A stretch of DNA of 8,026 nucleotides from a virus (Duplodnaviria > Heunggongvirae > Uroviricota > Caudoviricetes): IMG/VR virus record IMGVR_UViG_2654587792_000015; one strand, given 5' to 3'. Positions 1-8,026 of the stretch are shown here, piece after piece. The notes beneath the pieces were generated by a model. It was given only the letters and a program-made list of their open reading frames with translations, did no database searches and was not told the origin of the DNA. The translations under genes and the position numbers were made by a program. Each line of letters begins with the position of its first letter. The first letter of the stretch is position 1.

Positions 1-95
1 CCGATAAACCGGGTCGGCGAACTGCTCCCCTGGCGCGTAGCACTGCCGACTGAATAACACATCCCCGTCAATACGGTTCTTGCTGCACGCTTACG

Positions 96-1571
96 TTGAT
101 CATGAATGGGCAGCATACCGAGTTTAATCGCCTTCTCGGGCTCGGTAATGAATTACTTCAGCAGCGACAGGGGCTGGTGAATGTACCGTTACGGCTACCA
201 CAGGCAACCCTGGATGATAAACAGCAGACTGCACTGAATAACAGCGAGCGCGAACTGGCTCTGTCCCGCCTGAAGGGGGAAGCCCGTGAGCGTGCCCGCT
301 TGGGTTATGCTGCGGATGATCTCGGCTTTGTGGGAGAGGCGTATCAGACAGCCAGACAGAATTATATCAATAACTCACTGGATGCCTGGCGAAATAACCA
401 GGCAAATAAACCCAAAGCGCATAAAAAGACCGAAGCGGAAAAAACAGAAGATATTTATAAACGGCTGATTAAACAGCAAAAAGAACAAATAGCACTGGCA
501 GGGCAGAATACTGAACTGGCTAAGATGAAATATCAGGTCAGTCAGGGCGAATTATCAACCCTGTCAGAAGCGCAGAAAAAAACGCTTTTGCAGAATGCAG
601 CACTCATCGACCAGAAAAAGATTCGTGAGCAGCTTGCTGCGTATGAAAGCAGCCTGGCGGACAGTAATGCCAGTACCCGGGCGTCTAACGACGCGCAGTT
701 ACTGGGATATGGTGAAGGCTCACGGATGCGTGAACGACTCCAGGAAATGTGGAGTATCCGGCATGAGTTTGAGCAGAAAAATAACGAGCTGCTGAGACAG
801 TATCAGGCCGGAGAAATTGAAGAAGCCCTGTGGAAACAGGAGAAAGAACTGAATAAAAAATATCTGGAAGAGCGTCTCAGCGATCAGCAGGATTATTATG
901 CAAAGGCCGATGCTTTACGTAATAACTGGAATGCAGGACTCCAGGAGGGGCTGACCAACTGGGCAGACAGTGCCACCGATTATGCTTCGCAGGCGGCAGA
1001 TGCTGTCGTTTCCACTATGGACGGACTGGTATCAAATATTTCCGATGCACTGGCCGGAAATGTTGTGGACTGGAGAAACTGGGGGAGTTCAATTCTCCAG
1101 GAAGTTTCAAAAATTCTGATGAATGCGGCCATTGTTAACGGACTGAAGTCACTCTCCGGTGCCGGAGGGTGGCTTGGTACGGTCGGCGGATGGATTTCGG
1201 GGGCGGTGGCAAACGCAAAAGGTGGTGTTTACACATCAGCAAATCTGAGTGCTTACAGTAACACTATTGTGGATACACCGACGTATTTTGCTTTTGCGAA
1301 AGGTGCCGGGCTGATGGGCGAGGCCGGGCCTGAAGCTATCATGCCACTGACACGGGCAGCGGACGGCTCTCTTGGGGTCAGAGCCATTGGCAATGTGAAT
1401 AGTGGCGGGGGGGTTGTTTATTCTCCCGTGTATCACATCAGCATTCAGAATCAAGGGAGCAATGGCGAGATAGATGCGCGCTCAGCCAGGGGACTGGTGG
1501 ATCTGATCGACAGCAGGGTTGTGTCAATTATGCAGTCATCGCGTCGGGATGGAGGATTGTACAGTGCCTGA
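96..1571 (+). CDS. H: Phage tail tape measure protein (lambda gpH-like), C-terminal ~490 codons only; probably a 5'-truncated remnant rather than a complete gene
   Basis: Open frame 96-1571 (TTG at 96, first ATG at 102), ending ...RRDGGLYSA then TGA at 1569-1571. The Gly-rich, hydrophobic C-terminal segment (NWNAGLQEGLTNWADSATDYASQ...ILMNAAIVNGL...) and the Q/E/K/R-rich coiled-coil-like region before it match the C-terminal architecture of lambdoid tape measure proteins, and the ORF sits immediately upstream of M-L-K-I-J. No Shine-Dalgarno motif precedes 96 or 102, and all three forward frames contain stops within nt 1-57 (frame 0 TGA 51-53, frame 1 TAA 55-57, frame 2 TAA 5-7 and TAG 38-40). 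Confidence 0.75.
   Translation: MIMNGQHTEFNRLLGLGNELLQQRQGLVNVPLRLPQATLDDKQQTALNNSERELALSRLKGEARERARLGYAADDLGFVGEAYQTARQNYINNSLDAWRNNQANKPKAHKKTEAEKTEDIYKRLIKQQKEQIALAGQNTELAKMKYQVSQGELSTLSEAQKKTLLQNAALIDQKKIREQLAAYESSLADSNASTRASNDAQLLGYGEGSRMRERLQEMWSIRHEFEQKNNELLRQYQAGEIEEALWKQEKELNKKYLEERLSDQQDYYAKADALRNNWNAGLQEGLTNWADSATDYASQAADAVVSTMDGLVSNISDALAGNVVDWRNWGSSILQEVSKILMNAAIVNGLKSLSGAGGWLGTVGGWISGAVANAKGGVYTSANLSAYSNTIVDTPTYFAFAKGAGLMGEAGPEAIMPLTRAADGSLGVRAIGNVNSGGGVVYSPVYHISIQNQGSNGEIDARSARGLVDLIDSRVVSIMQSSRRDGGLYSA
1549..1571 (+). promoter_or_regulatory. H/M translational-coupling junction: Shine-Dalgarno GGAGG plus overlapping stop and start
   Basis: GGAGG at 1551-1555, GTG 1564-1566, H stop TGA 1569-1571 (GTGCCTGA). 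Confidence 0.5.
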
Positions 1572-1905
1572 GCCTGAAGTTTTTAACTGGATCCCCCGTG
1601 AGGGGATGGAGACGACACGAAAGCCATCAGTTATTACGGTAAAGTTTGGTGACGGATATGAACAGCGACGGGCTGGTGGTCTGAATGCGGATCTGAAAAC
1701 GTTTAAACCGGTATTTCGTGTCACAGATGAATATTCCCGTGCCGCGCTGGACAGTTTTTTATCCCGTCATGCCGGGATTCGTGCTTTTTTGTGGCGTCCG
1801 CCAAAACACAACAGGACTGTCCGGGTTGTCTGCAGGGAGTGGAGCATTTCGGATAATGCCATGTATACCGATTTTAACTGTACCTTTGAAGAGGTCACTC
1901 ACTGA
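1564..1905 (+). CDS. M: Phage minor tail protein M (lambda gpM-like)
   Basis: Frame-1 ORF containing ...VKFGDGYEQRRAGGLNADLKT...FLWRPP..., which I recognise as gpM-like. Preferred start is GTG 1564, preceded by GGAGG at 1551-1555 (8-nt spacer) and overlapping the H stop (GTGCCTGA); an alternative in-frame ATG at 1549 has no Shine-Dalgarno motif. The stop TGA at 1903-1905 overlaps the L start ATG at 1905-1907. Confidence 0.85.
   Translation: MPEPEVFNWIPREGMETTRKPSVITVKFGDGYEQRRAGGLNADLKTFKPVFRVTDEYSRAALDSFLSRHAGIRAFLWRPPKHNRTVRVVCREWSISDNAMYTDFNCTFEEVTH
1672..1679 (+). other. Chi octamer 5'-GCTGGTGG-3' (RecBCD recombination hotspot motif) inside M
   Basis: Exact match GCTGGTGG at 1672-1679 on the + strand. 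A single occurrence is near chance expectation, so functional significance is uncertain. Confidence 0.4.
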
Positions 1906-2604
1906 TGCAGGATATACAGCAGGAAACACTCAATGAGTGCACTAAAACGGAGCAATCCGCGCAGCATCGTGCTCTGGGAAATCGACCTGACAGAGGTCGG
2001 CGGAGAACGTTATTTCTTCTGTAATGAGCAGAACGAAAAAGGTGAACCAGTCACCTGGCAGGGGCGACAGTATCAGCCCTATCCCATTCAGGGAAGCGGA
2101 TTTGAAATGAATGGCAAAGGCACCAGTACGCGCCCCACGCTGACGGTTTCTAACCTGTACGGTATGGTCACCGGGATGGCGGAAGACATGCAGAGTCTGG
2201 TCGGCGGAACGGTGGTCAGGCGTAAGGTTTACGCCCGTTTTCTGGATGCGGTGAACTTCGTCAACGGAAACAGTGACGCCGATCCGGAGCAGGAGGTGAT
2301 CAGCCGCTGGCGCATCGAGCAGTGCAGCGAACTGAGCGCGGTCAGTGCCTCCTTTGTACTGTCCACGCCGACGGAAACGGACGGCGCCGTTTTTCCGGGC
2401 CGCATCATGCTGGCCAACACCTGCACCTGGACCTATCGCGGTGACGAGTGCGGTTATCACGGTCCGGCGGTCGCGGATGAATATGACCAGCCGACGTCCG
2501 ATATCACGAAGGATAAATGCAGCAAATGCCTGAGCGGCTGTAAGTTCCGCAATAACGTCGGCAACTTTGGCGGCTTCCTTTCCATTAACAAACTTTCGCA
2601 GTAA
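1905..2604 (+). pseudogene. L: Phage minor tail protein L (lambda gpL-like), reading frame disrupted by an apparent 1-nt insertion near 1959-1962
   Basis: ATG 1905 (coupled to the M stop) opens frame 0: MQDIQQETLNECTKTEQSA..., which hits TAA at 2022-2024 after 39 codons. Homology continues in the +1 frame from 1963 (SIVLWEIDLTEVGGERYFFCNEQNEKGEPVTWQGRQYQPYPIQ...) to TAA at 2602-2604; the six-frame track shows only the +1 piece (1933-2604). Joining the two gives 19 + 213 = 232 aa, the length I recall for lambda gpL. Confidence 0.8.
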
Positions 2605-2609
2605 ATCCC

Positions 2610-3353
2610 ATGACACAGACAGAATCAGCGATTCTGGCGCACGCCCGGCGATGTGCGCCAGCGGAGTCGTGCGGCTTCGTGGTAAGAACGCCGGAGGGGG
2701 AAAGATATTTCCCCTGCGTGAATATCTCCGGTGAGCCGGAGGCGTATTTCCGTATGTCGCCGGAAGACTGGCTGCAGGCAGAAATGCAGGGTGAGATTGT
2801 GGCGCTGGTCCACAGCCACCCCGGTGGTCTGCCCTGGCTGAGTGAGGCCGACCGGCGGCTGCAGGTGCAGAGTGATTTGCCGTGGTGGCTGGTCTGCCGG
2901 GGGACGATTCATAAGTTCCGCTGTGTGCCGCATCTCACCGGGCGGCGCTTTGAGCACGGTGTGACGGACTGTTACACACTGTTCCGGGATGCTTATCATC
3001 TGGCGGGGATTGAGATGCCGGACTTTCATCGTGAGGATGACTGGTGGCGTAACGGCCAGAATCTCTATCTGGATAATCTGGAGGCGACGGGGCTGTATCA
3101 GGTGCCGTTGTCAGCGGCACAGCCGGGCGATGTGCTGCTGTGCTGTTTTGGTTCATCGGTGCCGAATCATGCCGCTATTTACTGCGGCGACGGCGAGCTG
3201 CTGCACCATATTCCTGAACAACTGAGCAAACGAGAGAGGTATACCGACAAATGGCAGCGACGCACACACTCCCTCTGGCGTCACCGGGCATGGCACGCAT
3301 CTGCCTTTACGGGGATTTGCAACGATTTGGCCGCCGCATCGACCTTCGTGTGA
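2610..3353 (+). CDS. K: Phage tail tip assembly protein K (lambda gpK-like), with an N-terminal MPN/JAMM-like motif and a C-terminal NlpC/P60-like region
   Basis: Uninterrupted 247-codon ORF starting 5 nt after the L stop. A JAMM-type motif H-x-H-x7-S-x2-D is present (HSHPGGLPWLSEAD, about nt 2811-2852), and candidate NlpC/P60 Cys and His lie in VTDCYTLF and PNHAAIY. The 3' end overlaps the I start by 103 nt in a different frame, as in lambda. Confidence 0.9.
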   Translation: MTQTESAILAHARRCAPAESCGFVVRTPEGERYFPCVNISGEPEAYFRMSPEDWLQAEMQGEIVALVHSHPGGLPWLSEADRRLQVQSDLPWWLVCRGTIHKFRCVPHLTGRRFEHGVTDCYTLFRDAYHLAGIEMPDFHREDDWWRNGQNLYLDNLEATGLYQVPLSAAQPGDVLLCCFGSSVPNHAAIYCGDGELLHHIPEQLSKRERYTDKWQRRTHSLWRHRAWHASAFTGICNDLAAASTFV

Positions 3354-3899
3354 AAACGGGGGCCGAAGCCATCCGGGCACTGGCCACACAGATCCCGGCG
3401 TTTCGTCAGAAACTGAACGAGGGCTGGTATCAGGTGCGCATTGCCGGGCGTGATGCAGGCGAAAACGAATTATCAGCCCGTCTTAATGAGCCGCTGAAAA
3501 ATGGTGCCGTGATCCACATCGTACCGCGTCTGGCGGGAGCAAAAAGTGGCGGTGTGTTTCAGGCGGTGCTGGGGGCGGCGCTGATTGCAGTGGCATGGTG
3601 GAACCCTGCAGGCTGGCTGGGAGCCGCGGCTGTATCGGGCATGTATGCGGCAGGGGCCAGTATGATCCTGGGCGGAGTGGCGCAGATGCTGGCACCGAAA
3701 GCCAGAACGCCCACGTACACACACAACAGATAACGGCAAACAGAACACCTATTTCTCCTCACTGGATAACATGGTTGCCCAGGGCAATGTTCTGCCTGTT
3801 CTGTACGGTGAAATGCGCGTGGGGTCACGGGTGGCTTCTCAGGAGATCAGCACGGCAGACGAAGGGGACGGTGGTCAGGTTGTGGTGATTGGTCGCTGA
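3251..3899 (+). pseudogene. I: Phage tail tip assembly protein I (lambda gpI-like), reading frame disrupted by an apparent 1-nt insertion near 3708-3713
   Basis: ATG 3251 (GAGAGAGG upstream, inside the K 3' end) opens frame 2: MAATHTLPLASPGMARICLYGDLQRFGRRIDLRVKTGAEAIRALATQ..., which terminates at TAA 3731-3733 (...KARTPTYTHNR). The conserved gpI-like C-terminus (...TTDNGKQNTYFSSLDNMVAQGNVLPVLYGEMRVGSRVASQEISTADEGDGGQVVVIGR) is in the +1 frame (frame 0) and ends at TGA 3897-3899, just before the J ribosome-binding site. The switch point is at or near the CCC run 3710-3712. Confidence 0.75.
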
Positions 3900-3917
3900 T
3901 GCAAAATGTTTTATGTG

Positions 3918-3937
3918 AAACCGCCTCAGGGCGGTTT
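3918..3937 (+). promoter_or_regulatory. Intergenic hairpin between I and J; possible weak terminator, attenuator or mRNA-stability element
   Basis: AAACCGCC (3918-3925), loop TCAG (3926-3929), GGCGGTTT (3930-3937), followed by TGTCGTTT. It lies between the I stop (3897-3899) and the J ribosome-binding site (3948-3951). Confidence 0.3.
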
Positions 3938-3959
3938 TGTCGTTTATGGAGCGTGAGGA

Positions 3960-6900
3960 ATGGGTAAAGGCAGCAGTAAGGGGCATACCCCGCGCGAAGC
4001 GAAGGACAACCTGAAGTCCACGCAGCTGCTGAGTGTGATCGATGCCATCAGCGAAGGGCCGATAGAAGGTCCGGTGGATGGATTAAAAAGCGTGCTGCTG
4101 AACAGTACGCCGGTGCTGGACACTGAGGAGAATACCAACATCTCCGGCGTCACGGTGGTGTTCCGGGCAGGTGAGCAGGAGCAGACACCGCCGGAGGGGT
4201 TTGAATCCTCCGGCTCCGAGACGGTGCTGGGTACGGAAGTGAAATATGACACGCCGATCACCCGGACCATCACGTCGGCAAACATCGACCGTCTGCGCTT
4301 TACCTTCGGTGTGCAGGCACTGGTGGAAACCACCTCAAAGGGGGACAGGAATCCGTCGGAAGTCCGCCTGCTGGTTCAGATACAGCGTAACGGTGGCTGG
4401 GTGACGGAAAAAGACATCACCATTAAGGGCAAAACCACCTCGCAGTATCTGGCCTCGGTGGTGGTGGATAACCTGCCGCCGCGCCCGTTTAATATCCGGA
4501 TGCGCAGGATGACGCCGGACAGCACCACAGACCAGCTGCAGAACAAAACGCTCTGGTCGTCATACACCGAAATCATCGATGTGAAACAGGGCTACCCGAA
4601 CACGGCACTGGTCGGCGTACAGGTGGACTCGGAGCAGTTCGGCAGCCAGCAGGTGAGCCGTAATTATCATCTGCGCGGACGCATTCTGCAGGTGCCGTCG
4701 AACTACAACCCGCAAAAACGGCACATACAGCGGTATCTGGGACGGAACGTTAAAACCGGCATACAGCAACAACCCGGCCTGGTGTCTGTGGGATATGCTG
4801 ACCCACCCGCGCTACGGCATGGGGAAACGTCTTGGTGCGGCGGATGTGGATAAATGGGCGCTGTATGTCATCGGCCAGTACTGCGACCAGTCGGTGCCGG
4901 ACGGCTTTGGCGGCACGGAGCCGCGCATCACCTGTAATGCGTACCTGACCACACAGCGCAAGGCGTGGGATGTGCTCAGTGATTTCTGCTCGGCGATGCG
5001 CTGTATGCCGGTATGGAACGGGCAGACGCTGACGTTCGTGCAGGACCGACCGTCGGATAAGGTGTGGACCTATAACCGCAGTAATGTGGTGATGCCGGAT
5101 GATGGCGCGCCGTTCCGCTACAGCTTCAGCGCCCTGAAAGACCGCCATAATGCCGTTGAGGTGAACTGGATTGACCCGAATAACGGCTGGGAGACGGCGA
5201 CAGAGCTTGTTGAAGATACGCAGGCCATTGCCCGTTACGGTCGTAACGTCACGAAGATGGATGCCTTTGGCTGTACCAGCCGGGGGCAGGCGCACCGCGC
5301 CGGGCTGTGGCTGATTAAAACAGAACTGCTGGAAACGCAGACCGTGGACTTCAGCGTGGGTGCAGAAGGGCTTCGCCATGTACCGGGCGATGTCATTGAA
5401 ATCTGTGATGATGACTATGCCGGTATCAGCACCGGCGGGCGCGTGCTGGCGGTGAACAGCCAGACCCGGACGCTGACGCTCGACCGTGAAATCACGCTGC
5501 CATCCTCCGGTACCACGCTGATAAGCCTGGTTGACGGAAGTGGCAATCCGGTCAGCGTGGAGGTTCAGTCCGTCACCGACGGCGTGAAGGTAAAAGTGAG
5601 CCGTGTTCCTGACGGTGTTGCTGAATACAGCGTGTGGGGGCTGAAGCTGCCGACGCTGCGCCAGCGCCTGTTCCGCTGCGTGAGTATCCGTGAGAACGAC
5701 GACGGCACGTATGCCATCACCGCCGTGCAGCATGTACCGGAAAAAGAAGCCATCGTGGATAACGGGGCGCACTTTGACGGCGACCAGAGCGGCACGGTGA
5801 ATGGTGTCACGCCGCCAGCGGTGCAGCACCTGACCGCAGAAGTCACCGCAGACAGTGGGGAATATCAGGTGCTGGCGCGCTGGGACACGCCGAAGGTGGT
5901 GAAGGGCGTGAGCTTCCTGCTTCGCCTGACCGTGGCAGCGGACGATGGCAGTGAGCGGCTGGTCAGCACGGCCAGGACGACGGAAACTACATACCGCTTC
6001 ACGCAACTGGCGCTGGGAAATTACAGGCTGACAGTCCGGGCGGTAAATGCGTGGGGACAGCAGGGCGATCCGGCATCGGTATCGTTCCGGATTGCCGCAC
6101 CGGCAGCACCGTCGCGGATTGAGCTGACGCCGGGCTATTTTCAGATAACCGCCACGCCGCATTTTGCGGTTTATGATCCGACGGTACAGTTTGAGTTCTG
6201 GTTCTCGGAAAAACGGATTGCTGATATCAGGCAGGTTGAAACCAGCGCGCGTTATCTTGGTACGGCGCTGTACTGGATAGCCGCCAGTATCAATATCAAA
6301 CCGGGCCATGATTATTATTTTTACGTTCGCAGTGTGAACACCGTTGGCAAATCGGCATTCGTGGAGGCTGTCGGTCGGGCGAGCGATGATGCGGAAGGTT
6401 ACCTGGATTTTTTCAAAGGAGAAATCGGGAAAACACATCTGGCCCAGGAGCTGTGGACGCAGATTGATAACGGTCAGCTTGCGCCGGACCTGGCTGAAAT
6501 CAGGACGTCCATTACGAATGTCAGCAATGAAATCACGCAGACCGTCAATAAAAAACTGGAAGACCAGAGTGCGGCAATCCAGCAGATACAGAAAGTTCAG
6601 GTTGATACAAATAATAACCTGAACAGCATGTGGGCCGTGAAACTGCAGCAGATGCAGGACGGACGCCTTTATATTGCGGGTATCGGAGCCGGTATTGAGA
6701 ATACGCCAGCAGGTATGCAGAGTCAGGTGCTTCTGGCTGCTGACCGGATTGCGATGATTAATCCTGCGAATGGCAACACAAAGCCGATGTTTGTTGGTCA
6801 GGGCGATCAGATATTCATGAACGAAGTGTTCCTGAAATACCTGACGGCTCCCACCATTACCAGCGGCGGTAATCCTCCGGCATTTTCCCTGACACCGGAC

Positions 6901-7440
6901 GGGCGGCTGACGGCGAAAAATGCCGATATCAGCGGTAACGTGAATGCGAACTCCGGGACGCTCAACAACGTCACGATTAACGAAAACTGTCGGGTTCTGG
7001 GAAAACTGTCCGCCAACCAGATTGAAGGCGATCTCGTTAAAACAGTGGGCAAAGCTTTCCCCCGGGACTCCCGTGCACCGGAGCGGTGGCCATCAGGGAC
7101 CATTACCGTCAGGGTTTATGACGATCAGCCGTTTGACCGGCAAATTGTTATTCCGGCGGTGGCATTCAGTGGCGCTAAGCATGAGAGAGAGCATACTGAT
7201 ATTTACTCCTCATGCCGTCTGATAGTGCGGAAAAACGGTGCTGAAATTTATAACCGTACCGCGCTGGATAATACGCTGATTTACAGTGGTGTTATTGATA
7301 TGCCTGCCGGTCACGGTCACATGACGCTGGAGTTTTCGGTGTCAGCATGGCTGGTAAATAACTGGTATCCCACAGCAAGTATCAGCGATTTGCTGGTTGT
7401 GGTGATGAAGAAAGCCACCGCAGGCATCAGTATCAGCTGA
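3960..7440 (+). pseudogene. J: Phage host-specificity / central tail fibre protein J (lambda gpJ-like), reading frame disrupted by an apparent 1-nt insertion at the A5 run 4714-4718
   Basis: ATG 3960 with GGAG at 3948-3951 (8-nt spacer). Frame 0 reads MGKGSSKGHTPREAKDNLKSTQLLSVIDAISEGPIEGPVDGLKSVLLNSTPVLD..., which I recognise as the gpJ N-terminus. After ...SNYNPQ (about 4715) frame 0 degenerates and stops at 4851-4853, while the gpJ-like sequence continues in the +1 frame from about 4720 ([39 protein letters not shown]...) uninterrupted to TGA 7438-7440. Removing one nucleotide in 4713-4719 yields a single ORF of about 1159 codons. Confidence 0.85.
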
Positions 7441-7458
7441 ATTTTATAACCCATATAC

Positions 7459-7483
7459 GGGCGCCAGAAATGGCGCCTTTTTT
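7459..7483 (+). terminator. Rho-independent terminator downstream of J
   Basis: Stem GGCGCC (7460-7465), loop AGAAAT (7466-7471), stem GGCGCC (7472-7477), followed directly by TTTTTT (7478-7483). It lies 19 nt after the J stop and before the lom-like ribosome-binding site. Confidence 0.65.
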
Positions 7484-7507
7484 ATTGCAGAAAAGCGAGA
7501 GGTAATT

Positions 7508-8026
7508 ATGCGTAAAGTTTGTGCAGCCATTTTGTCCGCAGCCATCTGTCTGTCCGTATCCGGTGCGCCTGCATGGGCGTCTGAACATCAGTCCACACTG
7601 AGCGCGGGGTATCTTCATGCCCGTACGAACGCTCCCGGCAGCGATAATCTGAACGGGATTAACGTGAAATACCGTTATGAGTTTACGGACGCGCTGGGGC
7701 TGATTACGTCCTTCAGTTATGCCAATGCTGAGGATGAGCAAAAAACGCACTACAGCGATACCCGCTGGCATGAAGATTCCGTGCGTAACCGCTGGTTCAG
7801 CGTGATGGCGGGGCCGTCTGTGCGCGTGAATGAATGGTTCAGCGCGTATGCGATGGTGGGTGTGGCTTACAGCCGTGTGTCGACTTTCTCCGGGGATTAT
7901 CTCCGCGTAACTGACAACAAGGGGAAAACGCACGATGTGCTGACCGGAAGTGATGACGGTCGCCACAGCAACACCTCTCTGGCGTGGGGAGCTGGCGTGC
8001 AGTTTAACCCGACCGAATCCGTGGCC
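7508..8026 (+). CDS. lom: Lom-like outer membrane protein (Ail/Lom/PagC/OmpX family), 5' part; the 3' end lies beyond the window
   Basis: ATG 7508 preceded by GAGAGG (7497-7502). The frame is open to the end of the window (173 codons): MRKVCAAILSAAICLSVSGAPAWA-SEHQ... The N-terminus is a typical signal peptide with an A-x-A cleavage site; GINVKYRYEF and the alternating aromatic/hydrophobic strands are characteristic of the Lom/Ail beta-barrel family. It occupies the position immediately downstream of J, as lom does in lambda. It is absent from the ORF track because no stop occurs within the window. Confidence 0.8.
   Translation, partial: MRKVCAAILSAAICLSVSGAPAWASEHQSTLSAGYLHARTNAPGSDNLNGINVKYRYEFTDALGLITSFSYANAEDEQKTHYSDTRWHEDSVRNRWFSVMAGPSVRVNEWFSAYAMVGVAYSRVSTFSGDYLRVTDNKGKTHDVLTGSDDGRHSNTSLAWGAGVQFNPTESVA

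Follow-up and report, generated by a model that had tools for sequence, protein, structure and literature searches.

The question raised by this locus is whether the distal part of a lambda-type tail tip protein, J, has been exchanged for another, and which receptor it would then recognize. The window analysed here, a stretch of 8026 bases, is the entire draft contig JHTM01000182.1 (assembly GCA_001506145.1), an 8 kb contig bounded by repeats. It is filled by a lambdoid prophage tail module, for which the ORFs and Pfam matches give the gene order of lambda, H-M-L-K-I-J-lom, and it is colinear with lambda 13409–18002. The ORF list places the 3' half of the tape-measure gene at 96–1571. M lies between this gene and L (1933–2604), K is at 2610–3353 and I at 3251–3733, and a lom-like gene starts from 7508. 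J comes after H, M, L, K and I and before lom. The first 94 nucleotides (border at about 95) are the end of an IS66-family element, ISEc22, which breaks into the middle of the tape-measure gene. Between J and the lom-like gene there is a terminator-like hairpin with a T-run (7459–7488, plus strand; one found against 0.1 expected), and phage 21 has an annotated terminator at the matching spot. Minus-strand ORFs within the J region (for example 6807–7103) were unsupported and were taken as spurious.

For a lambda-type J an uninterrupted ORF of about 1130–1160 codons is expected. Here the gene is instead split between two ORFs on the plus strand. The 5' ORF (3960–4853) covers the FNIII-A domain and the start of the hub; it follows the true J frame to about 4723 and is out of frame after that. 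It matches PF24801 (FNIII-A_GpJ, E = 5.7e-43) and has 98–100% amino acid identity to lambda J. The 3' ORF (4795–7440, stop included; 881 aa) covers the hub, two Ig/FNIII domains, the tail-tip fibre and the receptor-binding domain (RBD), with Pfam matches to PF13550, PF24421, PF24489, PF09327 and PF12421. The two are split by an extra C at 4724 (plus strand), which has no counterpart in six relatives, namely lambda, phage 21, 2G7b and three complete E. coli genomes. J was therefore reconstructed as window positions 3960–7437 minus the C at 4724, which gives one frame of 1159 codons and a protein of 1159 aa. Residue numbers given below refer to this protein unless they are marked as lambda numbers.

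The reconstructed protein has the domain series of a lambda-type J. The N-terminal hub and the FNIII/Ig series are represented by PF24801, PF13550, PF24421 and PF24489, with E values of 8e-40 to 1e-43. They are followed by the tail-tip fibre domain PF09327 at about residues 872–1000 (E = 1.6e-31) and then by the Ig-like domain PF12421 (Ig_GpJ_C; Tip attachment protein J, C-terminal RBD) at residues 1029–1159, nt 7045–7437 (E = 1.9e-37). Chains of gpJ in the PDB match the reconstructed J at E = 1e-108 to 1e-130. The best is A8 gpJ (9WCA, E = 1.3e-130), and there are further matches to lambda gpJ with LamB (8XCJ/8XCK) and to full lambda gpJ (8IYK). At the level of sequence, these matches to solved structures fix the predicted fold of the C-terminal region. 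In lambda gpJ an alpha-helical shaft comes after the two FNIII domains, then the central straight fibre, which is a beta-sheet prism, and finally an Ig-like RBD, of which four bottom loops enter trimeric LamB; binding is relayed upward by the fibre, and the tail tip opens (Ge & Wang 2024, PMC11101478).

Reconstructed J was compared with lambda gpJ (NC_001416 15505–18903; 1132 aa; P03749) by global protein alignment. The earlier note described the N-terminal and central parts as nearly identical to lambda gpJ, and this is what the alignment gives: residues 1–820 (3960–6420, plus strand) match lambda at 804 of 820 positions, or 98%, with 96.4% nucleotide identity. Over residues 821–1159, 165 of 311 aligned columns match (49% counting gaps), and the window protein has 28 extra residues. 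By a maximum chi-square scan the break is located after residue 820 (nt ~6421), at DFFKG|EIGKTH, where chi2 is 372; in 200 permutations it never exceeded 18, and the Fisher p value for the change in identity at residues 820/821 is about 1e-75. This is the same place at which the earlier note had begun the divergence. Its statement that the last ~330 residues differ substantially holds for the segment as a whole, which is far from the uniformly high identity over the C-terminal 300 residues that would have spoken against it, but not for every part of it, because residues 951–1014 form an island with 86% identity to lambda. The comparison at DNA level has the same shape: blastn aligns the window to lambda over 1885–6457 at 93.9% and over 6627–6990 at 75.8%, and gave no alignment to lambda past 6990.

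The divergent part can be divided into three. Sub-module A, the shaft and upper central straight fibre (residues 821–950; 6421–6810, plus strand), is a 'long' allele with the 28 extra residues. Its amino acid identity to lambda is 48% over aligned columns and 38% counting gaps, whereas phage 21, VT1-Sakai and E. coli 602687 match it at 97–100%. By comparison with the lambda sequence, the shaft would begin at residue 821 and would contain the 28 extra residues. The conserved island (residues 951–1014; 6811–7002, plus strand) has 83% nucleotide identity to lambda. It includes lambda residue 964, the graft point of engineered chimeras (PMC11338833, methods), and is likely to be a recombination junction. 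Sub-module B is the Ig-like RBD already described as PF12421 (residues 1029–1159; 7045–7437, plus strand; compare PDB 9wca, 8xcj and 8iyk), and is here called the 1A2/VT1-Sakai type. Its identity to the corresponding domain is 41% in lambda, 57% in A8, 61% in phage 21, 98% in 2G7b and VT1-Sakai, and 100% in the prophages of E. coli 602687 and O111:H2 12A.

These parts are found in different pairings. Phage 21 has the long allele of the shaft and upper fibre (98% aa) together with the 61% RBD, and its DNA is ~95% identical to the window over 6440–7040 and ~50% identical past 7040. Conversely, 2G7b has a lambda-type short shaft with the 98% RBD, being lambda-like over 6440–6800 and 95–100% identical to the window in DNA from ~6800 to the end. 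VT1-Sakai combines the long shaft with the 98% RBD, and the 602687 and O111:H2 12A prophages combine it with the 100% RBD and are identical to the window in nucleotide sequence over 6000–7500. Lambda has the short shaft and the 41% RBD. Because phage 21, 2G7b, VT1-Sakai and lambda differ in their pairing, all combinations of shaft allele and RBD allele exist. The crossover points, at 6421, ~6800 and ~7040–7060, lie on either side of the conserved island and at the borders of domains: the FNIII region gives way to the shaft at 6421, and Ig_GpJ_C (from 7045) begins at 7040–7060. On these alignments, the C-terminal third is made up of two independently assorting sub-modules joined by the conserved island. 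The idea of a swapped host-range module, put forward in the earlier note, is thus borne out by alleles that recur, 95–100% identical, in other phages and prophages and in discordant combinations.

The cassette is common. Of 5426 complete E. coli genomes, 2832 contain the 1041 nt C-terminal third at a coverage of 80% or more, mostly with 90–99% identity; two complete E. coli genomes have it at 100% identity. The nucleotide identity of this third is 97.7% for the VT1-Sakai and PPompW prophages, 96.3% for PhiR55_1 and 95.0% for vB_EcoS-640R1. VT1-Sakai (Sp15) and PPompW, both from E. coli O157:H7, have the same long shaft and RBD class as the window, but the J body of VT1-Sakai is more diverged (85.8% nucleotide identity over the gene). 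Phage records with a J-type RBD number 243; in 53 of these the RBD is at least 95% identical to that of the window, and the remainder fall into discrete classes at ~55–60% (phage 21, A8, BP-4795), 42% (lambda) and 37–40% (434, 2851). Both the host-range cassette and its allele in the window are known, the allele is widespread, and there is nothing new in kind.

Natural gpJ C-termini have been grafted onto lambda J at lambda residue 964, and tested in a recipient that lacked lamB and had its ompC only on a plasmid (Brödel et al., Nature 2024, PMC11338833). In that work chimera 1A2 delivered DNA efficiently only via the EDL933 variant of OmpC and not via LamB or the OmpC of MG1655 (K-12), whereas chimera A8 used the OmpC of both strains (PMC11338833). 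The DNA sequence given for 1A2 in the supplement is recoded and contains OCR errors, which make identities to it approximate; its alignment to the window protein was made by dynamic programming that tolerates frameshifts. Over the C-terminal 189 residues, 174 are identical to this damaged text; seven codons are damaged and most of the other differences adjoin the damage. Only two differences are credible, HEREH in the window for HEKEH in 1A2, in a variable stretch, and GISIS for GITIS near the C-terminus. Both are conservative, both are the state found in VT1-Sakai, and they are natural polymorphisms within the allele class. From lambda residue ~971 to the end, the window segment is thus ~99% identical to the grafted 1A2 segment. 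Since experiments show that 1A2 makes lambda use OmpC in place of LamB, the receptor of window J is most likely OmpC, in EDL933-like, non-K-12 variants, and not LamB. The suggestion of a receptor specificity different from that of lambda is in this way given a candidate receptor. Against lambda itself, the RBD has only 41% identity over residues 1029–1159 and its variable stretches differ in length, which is not what a lambda-type LamB-binding domain would look like. The two substitutions leave some doubt on the receptor. OmpC use was measured for 1A2, on EDL933-type OmpC, whereas for window J it is a prediction from the sequence.

Comparison with other J proteins of known receptor indicates how far such a prediction can be carried. 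Lambda gpJ (PDB 8IYK, 8XCJ, 8XCK) has the same C-terminal domain series as window J and binds LamB, but its shaft is 28 residues shorter and its RBD differs by indels in the variable stretches. The J of phage 21 (OL657228) shares the long shaft and upper fibre, and the island (94%), with the window, but its RBD is of an A8-like class. Its native receptor is LamB, and OmpC use was gained by one mutation (PMC11336670). The RBDs of phage 21 and A8 are 80% identical, and A8 binds OmpC; since phage 21 nevertheless uses LamB, similarity at the level of RBD class does not fix the receptor. That porin use in the J family can shift through single substitutions, as in phage 21, counts against our main explanation. 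A8 gpJ (PDB 9WCA/9WCB) and phage 434 J are OmpC binders with the same fold family as the window protein, but with RBD identities of 57% and ~39% they belong to separate allele classes, and the details of contact probably differ between their RBDs and that of the window. Phi330 is another siphophage that uses OmpC, with another class of RBD according to the paper that describes it, in which long-tailed Stx phages are also said to use OmpC (PMC12502783). The only paper found that mentions the PhiR/mEp phages (PV340xxx), which carry the window allele, contains no receptor data for them (bioRxiv 10.1101/2025.11.03.685801). In gut lambda-like phages four main J clusters have been described, which do not track host range (Mathieu et al. 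2020, PMC6969025).

The state of J in this contig is a separate matter. Three substitutions are clustered just upstream of the extra C at 4724, and the window has two more +1 insertions of its own, at ~1961 in the 5' end of L and at 3713 in I, where there is an early stop at 3733. None of the insertions in L, I and J is within a long homopolymer. As the assembly is a draft, they are either real mutations or errors of sequencing or assembly. Programmed ribosomal frameshifting at 4724 was rejected, because J of the relatives is a single ORF that lacks the extra C, and because L and I have +1 insertions too. Since J is split, a working tail tip that includes the module may not be made. If the insertions are real, the prophage would be unable to build a tail, and the cassette would be only a potential donor for recombination. 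The J gene of VT1-Sakai is also split by mutation, at a different place.

Taking this together, we consider it very probable that 6421–7440 encodes the receptor-recognizing distal part of J, that this is a composite made by homologous recombination and directed to EDL933-like OmpC and not LamB, and that the copy of J seen here is probably non-functional. According to this explanation the distal segment would have been acquired by recombination and not by point mutation, in three pieces: a long shaft and upper-fibre segment that is also present in phage 21; the conserved lower-fibre island, which would have served as the crossover site; and an Ig-like RBD of the class found in VT1-Sakai and in many E. 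coli prophages. As in lambda, the tip of the fibre would carry three copies of the RBD, each inserting four loops into a trimeric porin; these loops would presumably be formed by the variable stretches, one of which follows AFPR and another surrounds HEREH, and binding would be relayed up the fibre so that the tail tip opens. The porin would be OmpC in its EDL933-like variants, and neither K-12 OmpC nor LamB. In this contig, with J probably inactivated by the +1 split and neighbouring tail genes that look damaged, the cassette would be at most a recombination donor.

Two other accounts of the origin of the segment have to be considered. One is that a lambda-type J diverged in place, through diversifying selection or a raised rate of point mutation. 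Host-range regions are indeed under diversifying selection, and the J proteins of lambda and phage 21 gain receptors by point mutation in experiments (PMC11336670). Nevertheless, identity to lambda at third codon positions falls from 92% over residues 1–820 to 43% over 821–950 and 35% over 1015–1159, and GC content changes from ~0.59 to ~0.51 across the break. Because silent sites are nearly saturated, the length differs and there is a single sharp edge, the segment is read as imported and not as locally mutated. The abrupt change at one codon and the presence of the same alleles at 95–100% identity in other phages, in shuffled combinations, point the same way, and we regard divergence in place as very improbable. 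The other account is that the join of a lambda-like body to a non-lambda end is an artefact of short-read assembly, in which several prophage copies of J were collapsed into one. A repeat-bounded draft contig of 8 kb, three odd +1 insertions and three matching places in the median E. coli genome would all be compatible with this. However, the same join is present in the complete genomes L002 and L003 (100% over 6000–7500, 98.6% over 3929–8023) and in phage isolates such as vB_EcoS-640R1 (96.4% over 95–8026). Assembly chimerism was rejected on the evidence of the complete genomes, and we give it even less credence than divergence in place.

With a recombined host-range module as the preferred reading, there is an alternative view of its receptor, namely that it is LamB, OmpF or some other porin, or OmpC in variants unlike those used by 1A2. 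The lability of receptor choice, with RBDs 80% identical in phage 21 and A8 serving LamB and OmpC natively and a single mutation adding OmpC, argues in its favour, as do the R/K difference from 1A2 in the variable HE[R/K]EH stretch and the S/T difference near the C-terminus. But these two differences are conservative and naturally polymorphic in a segment that is otherwise the same throughout the graft, and the RBD is remote from the LamB-binding one of lambda, so we think this alternative unlikely. A further possibility complements the main explanation and does not compete with it: that the cassette has no current function in the source strain, being part of a decaying, tail-defective prophage. 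The insertions peculiar to the window in L, I and J, the IS66-family element in the tape-measure gene and the similarly split J of VT1-Sakai are in keeping with decay, whereas the draft status of the assembly, the otherwise intact module within an 881-aa ORF, and the identity of 6000–7500 to intact J genes elsewhere speak against it. We judge the two sides to be evenly balanced.

The locus is of use mainly as an illustration, because one gene shows how lambdoid phages change receptor, by swapping ready-made distal fibre cassettes at conserved junctions on domain borders. For annotation, two points matter: OmpC, and not LamB, is the receptor to be expected, and the tail module appears to be defective. 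What is added here is the exact breakpoint, the two-part module with its conserved junction, the assignment to the 1A2/VT1-Sakai OmpC class and the likely defect in J. The practical gain is small, since this widespread allele already stands in hundreds of genomes under the annotation gpJ, and lambda particles have been redirected to OmpC with it.

The 1A2 chimera has a lambda body and the short lambda shaft up to lambda residue 964, whereas the window has the long shaft. There is a slim chance that the long shaft, together with the R and S residues, gives a range of OmpC variants or a trigger for tail opening unlike that of 1A2. In that case the length of the shaft would not be a neutral passenger but a second determinant of infection, and one that can be exchanged independently. 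The combination of this RBD with a long shaft, although absent from 1A2, does occur in nature, since the phages vB_EcoS-640R1 and PhiR55_1 have a closely similar C-terminal third.

Three single-base insertions, at window positions ~1961-1965, 3713 and 4724, are seen in this contig only, and all three are missing in every relative that aligns at the respective site (lambda, phage 21, 2G7b and three complete E. coli genomes). The insertion at ~1961-1965 causes a frameshift in the 5' end of L, that at 3713 leads to truncation of I at 3733, and that at 4724 splits J. All three lie outside long homopolymers. As the contig comes from a draft assembly, real decay and sequencing error are indistinguishable for these insertions.

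The G at window position 2744 (equivalent to lambda 14267) is common to the window and the other relatives, and is lacking in the lambda reference. When this G is present, K is 247 aa long, starts 6 nt past L, and holds two domains, namely JAB/MPN and NlpC/P60, whereas lambda K is annotated as a protein of 199 aa that starts 148 nt past L.

Within I, the stretch at 3485-3684 has only ~67% identity to lambda and carries numerous small indels, while the sequence flanking it is 86-98% identical. The stretch has the appearance of a patch in the gene that is locally hypervariable or recombinant.

A further mosaic boundary, the second in the window, is located at ~nt 1885, near the junction of M and L. 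Window 1-1885 contains the C-terminus of the tape-measure protein together with M, neither of which is of lambda type: blastn gave no match to lambda. The GC content of this part is ~0.47-0.54, and its tape-measure portion matches the Pfam families Phage_HK97_TLTM and Tape_meas_lam_C. Window 1-94/95 is the terminal part of ISEc22, an IS66-family element; two complete genomes hold copies that are 98.9-100% identical to it. The contig terminus falls within this repeat (window 1-95). From base 95, right after the end of ISEc22, the sequence runs on inside the mid-portion of a tape-measure gene, and the gene is therefore interrupted by an IS in the source strain.

The J gene of VT1-Sakai, an Stx1 prophage (L006, 1069-4541), is annotated as being split in two by mutation. 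It has the same C-terminal cassette as the window J and is likewise split, but at a different position. A broken J seems to be common among resident lambdoid prophages. In the annotation of E. coli 602687 (10109-10707 of L002, the locus carrying the same J cassette), the lom-like gene 3' of J has a frameshift, and the T found at window 7857 is absent there. In the window, the lom-like ORF continues past the end of the contig.
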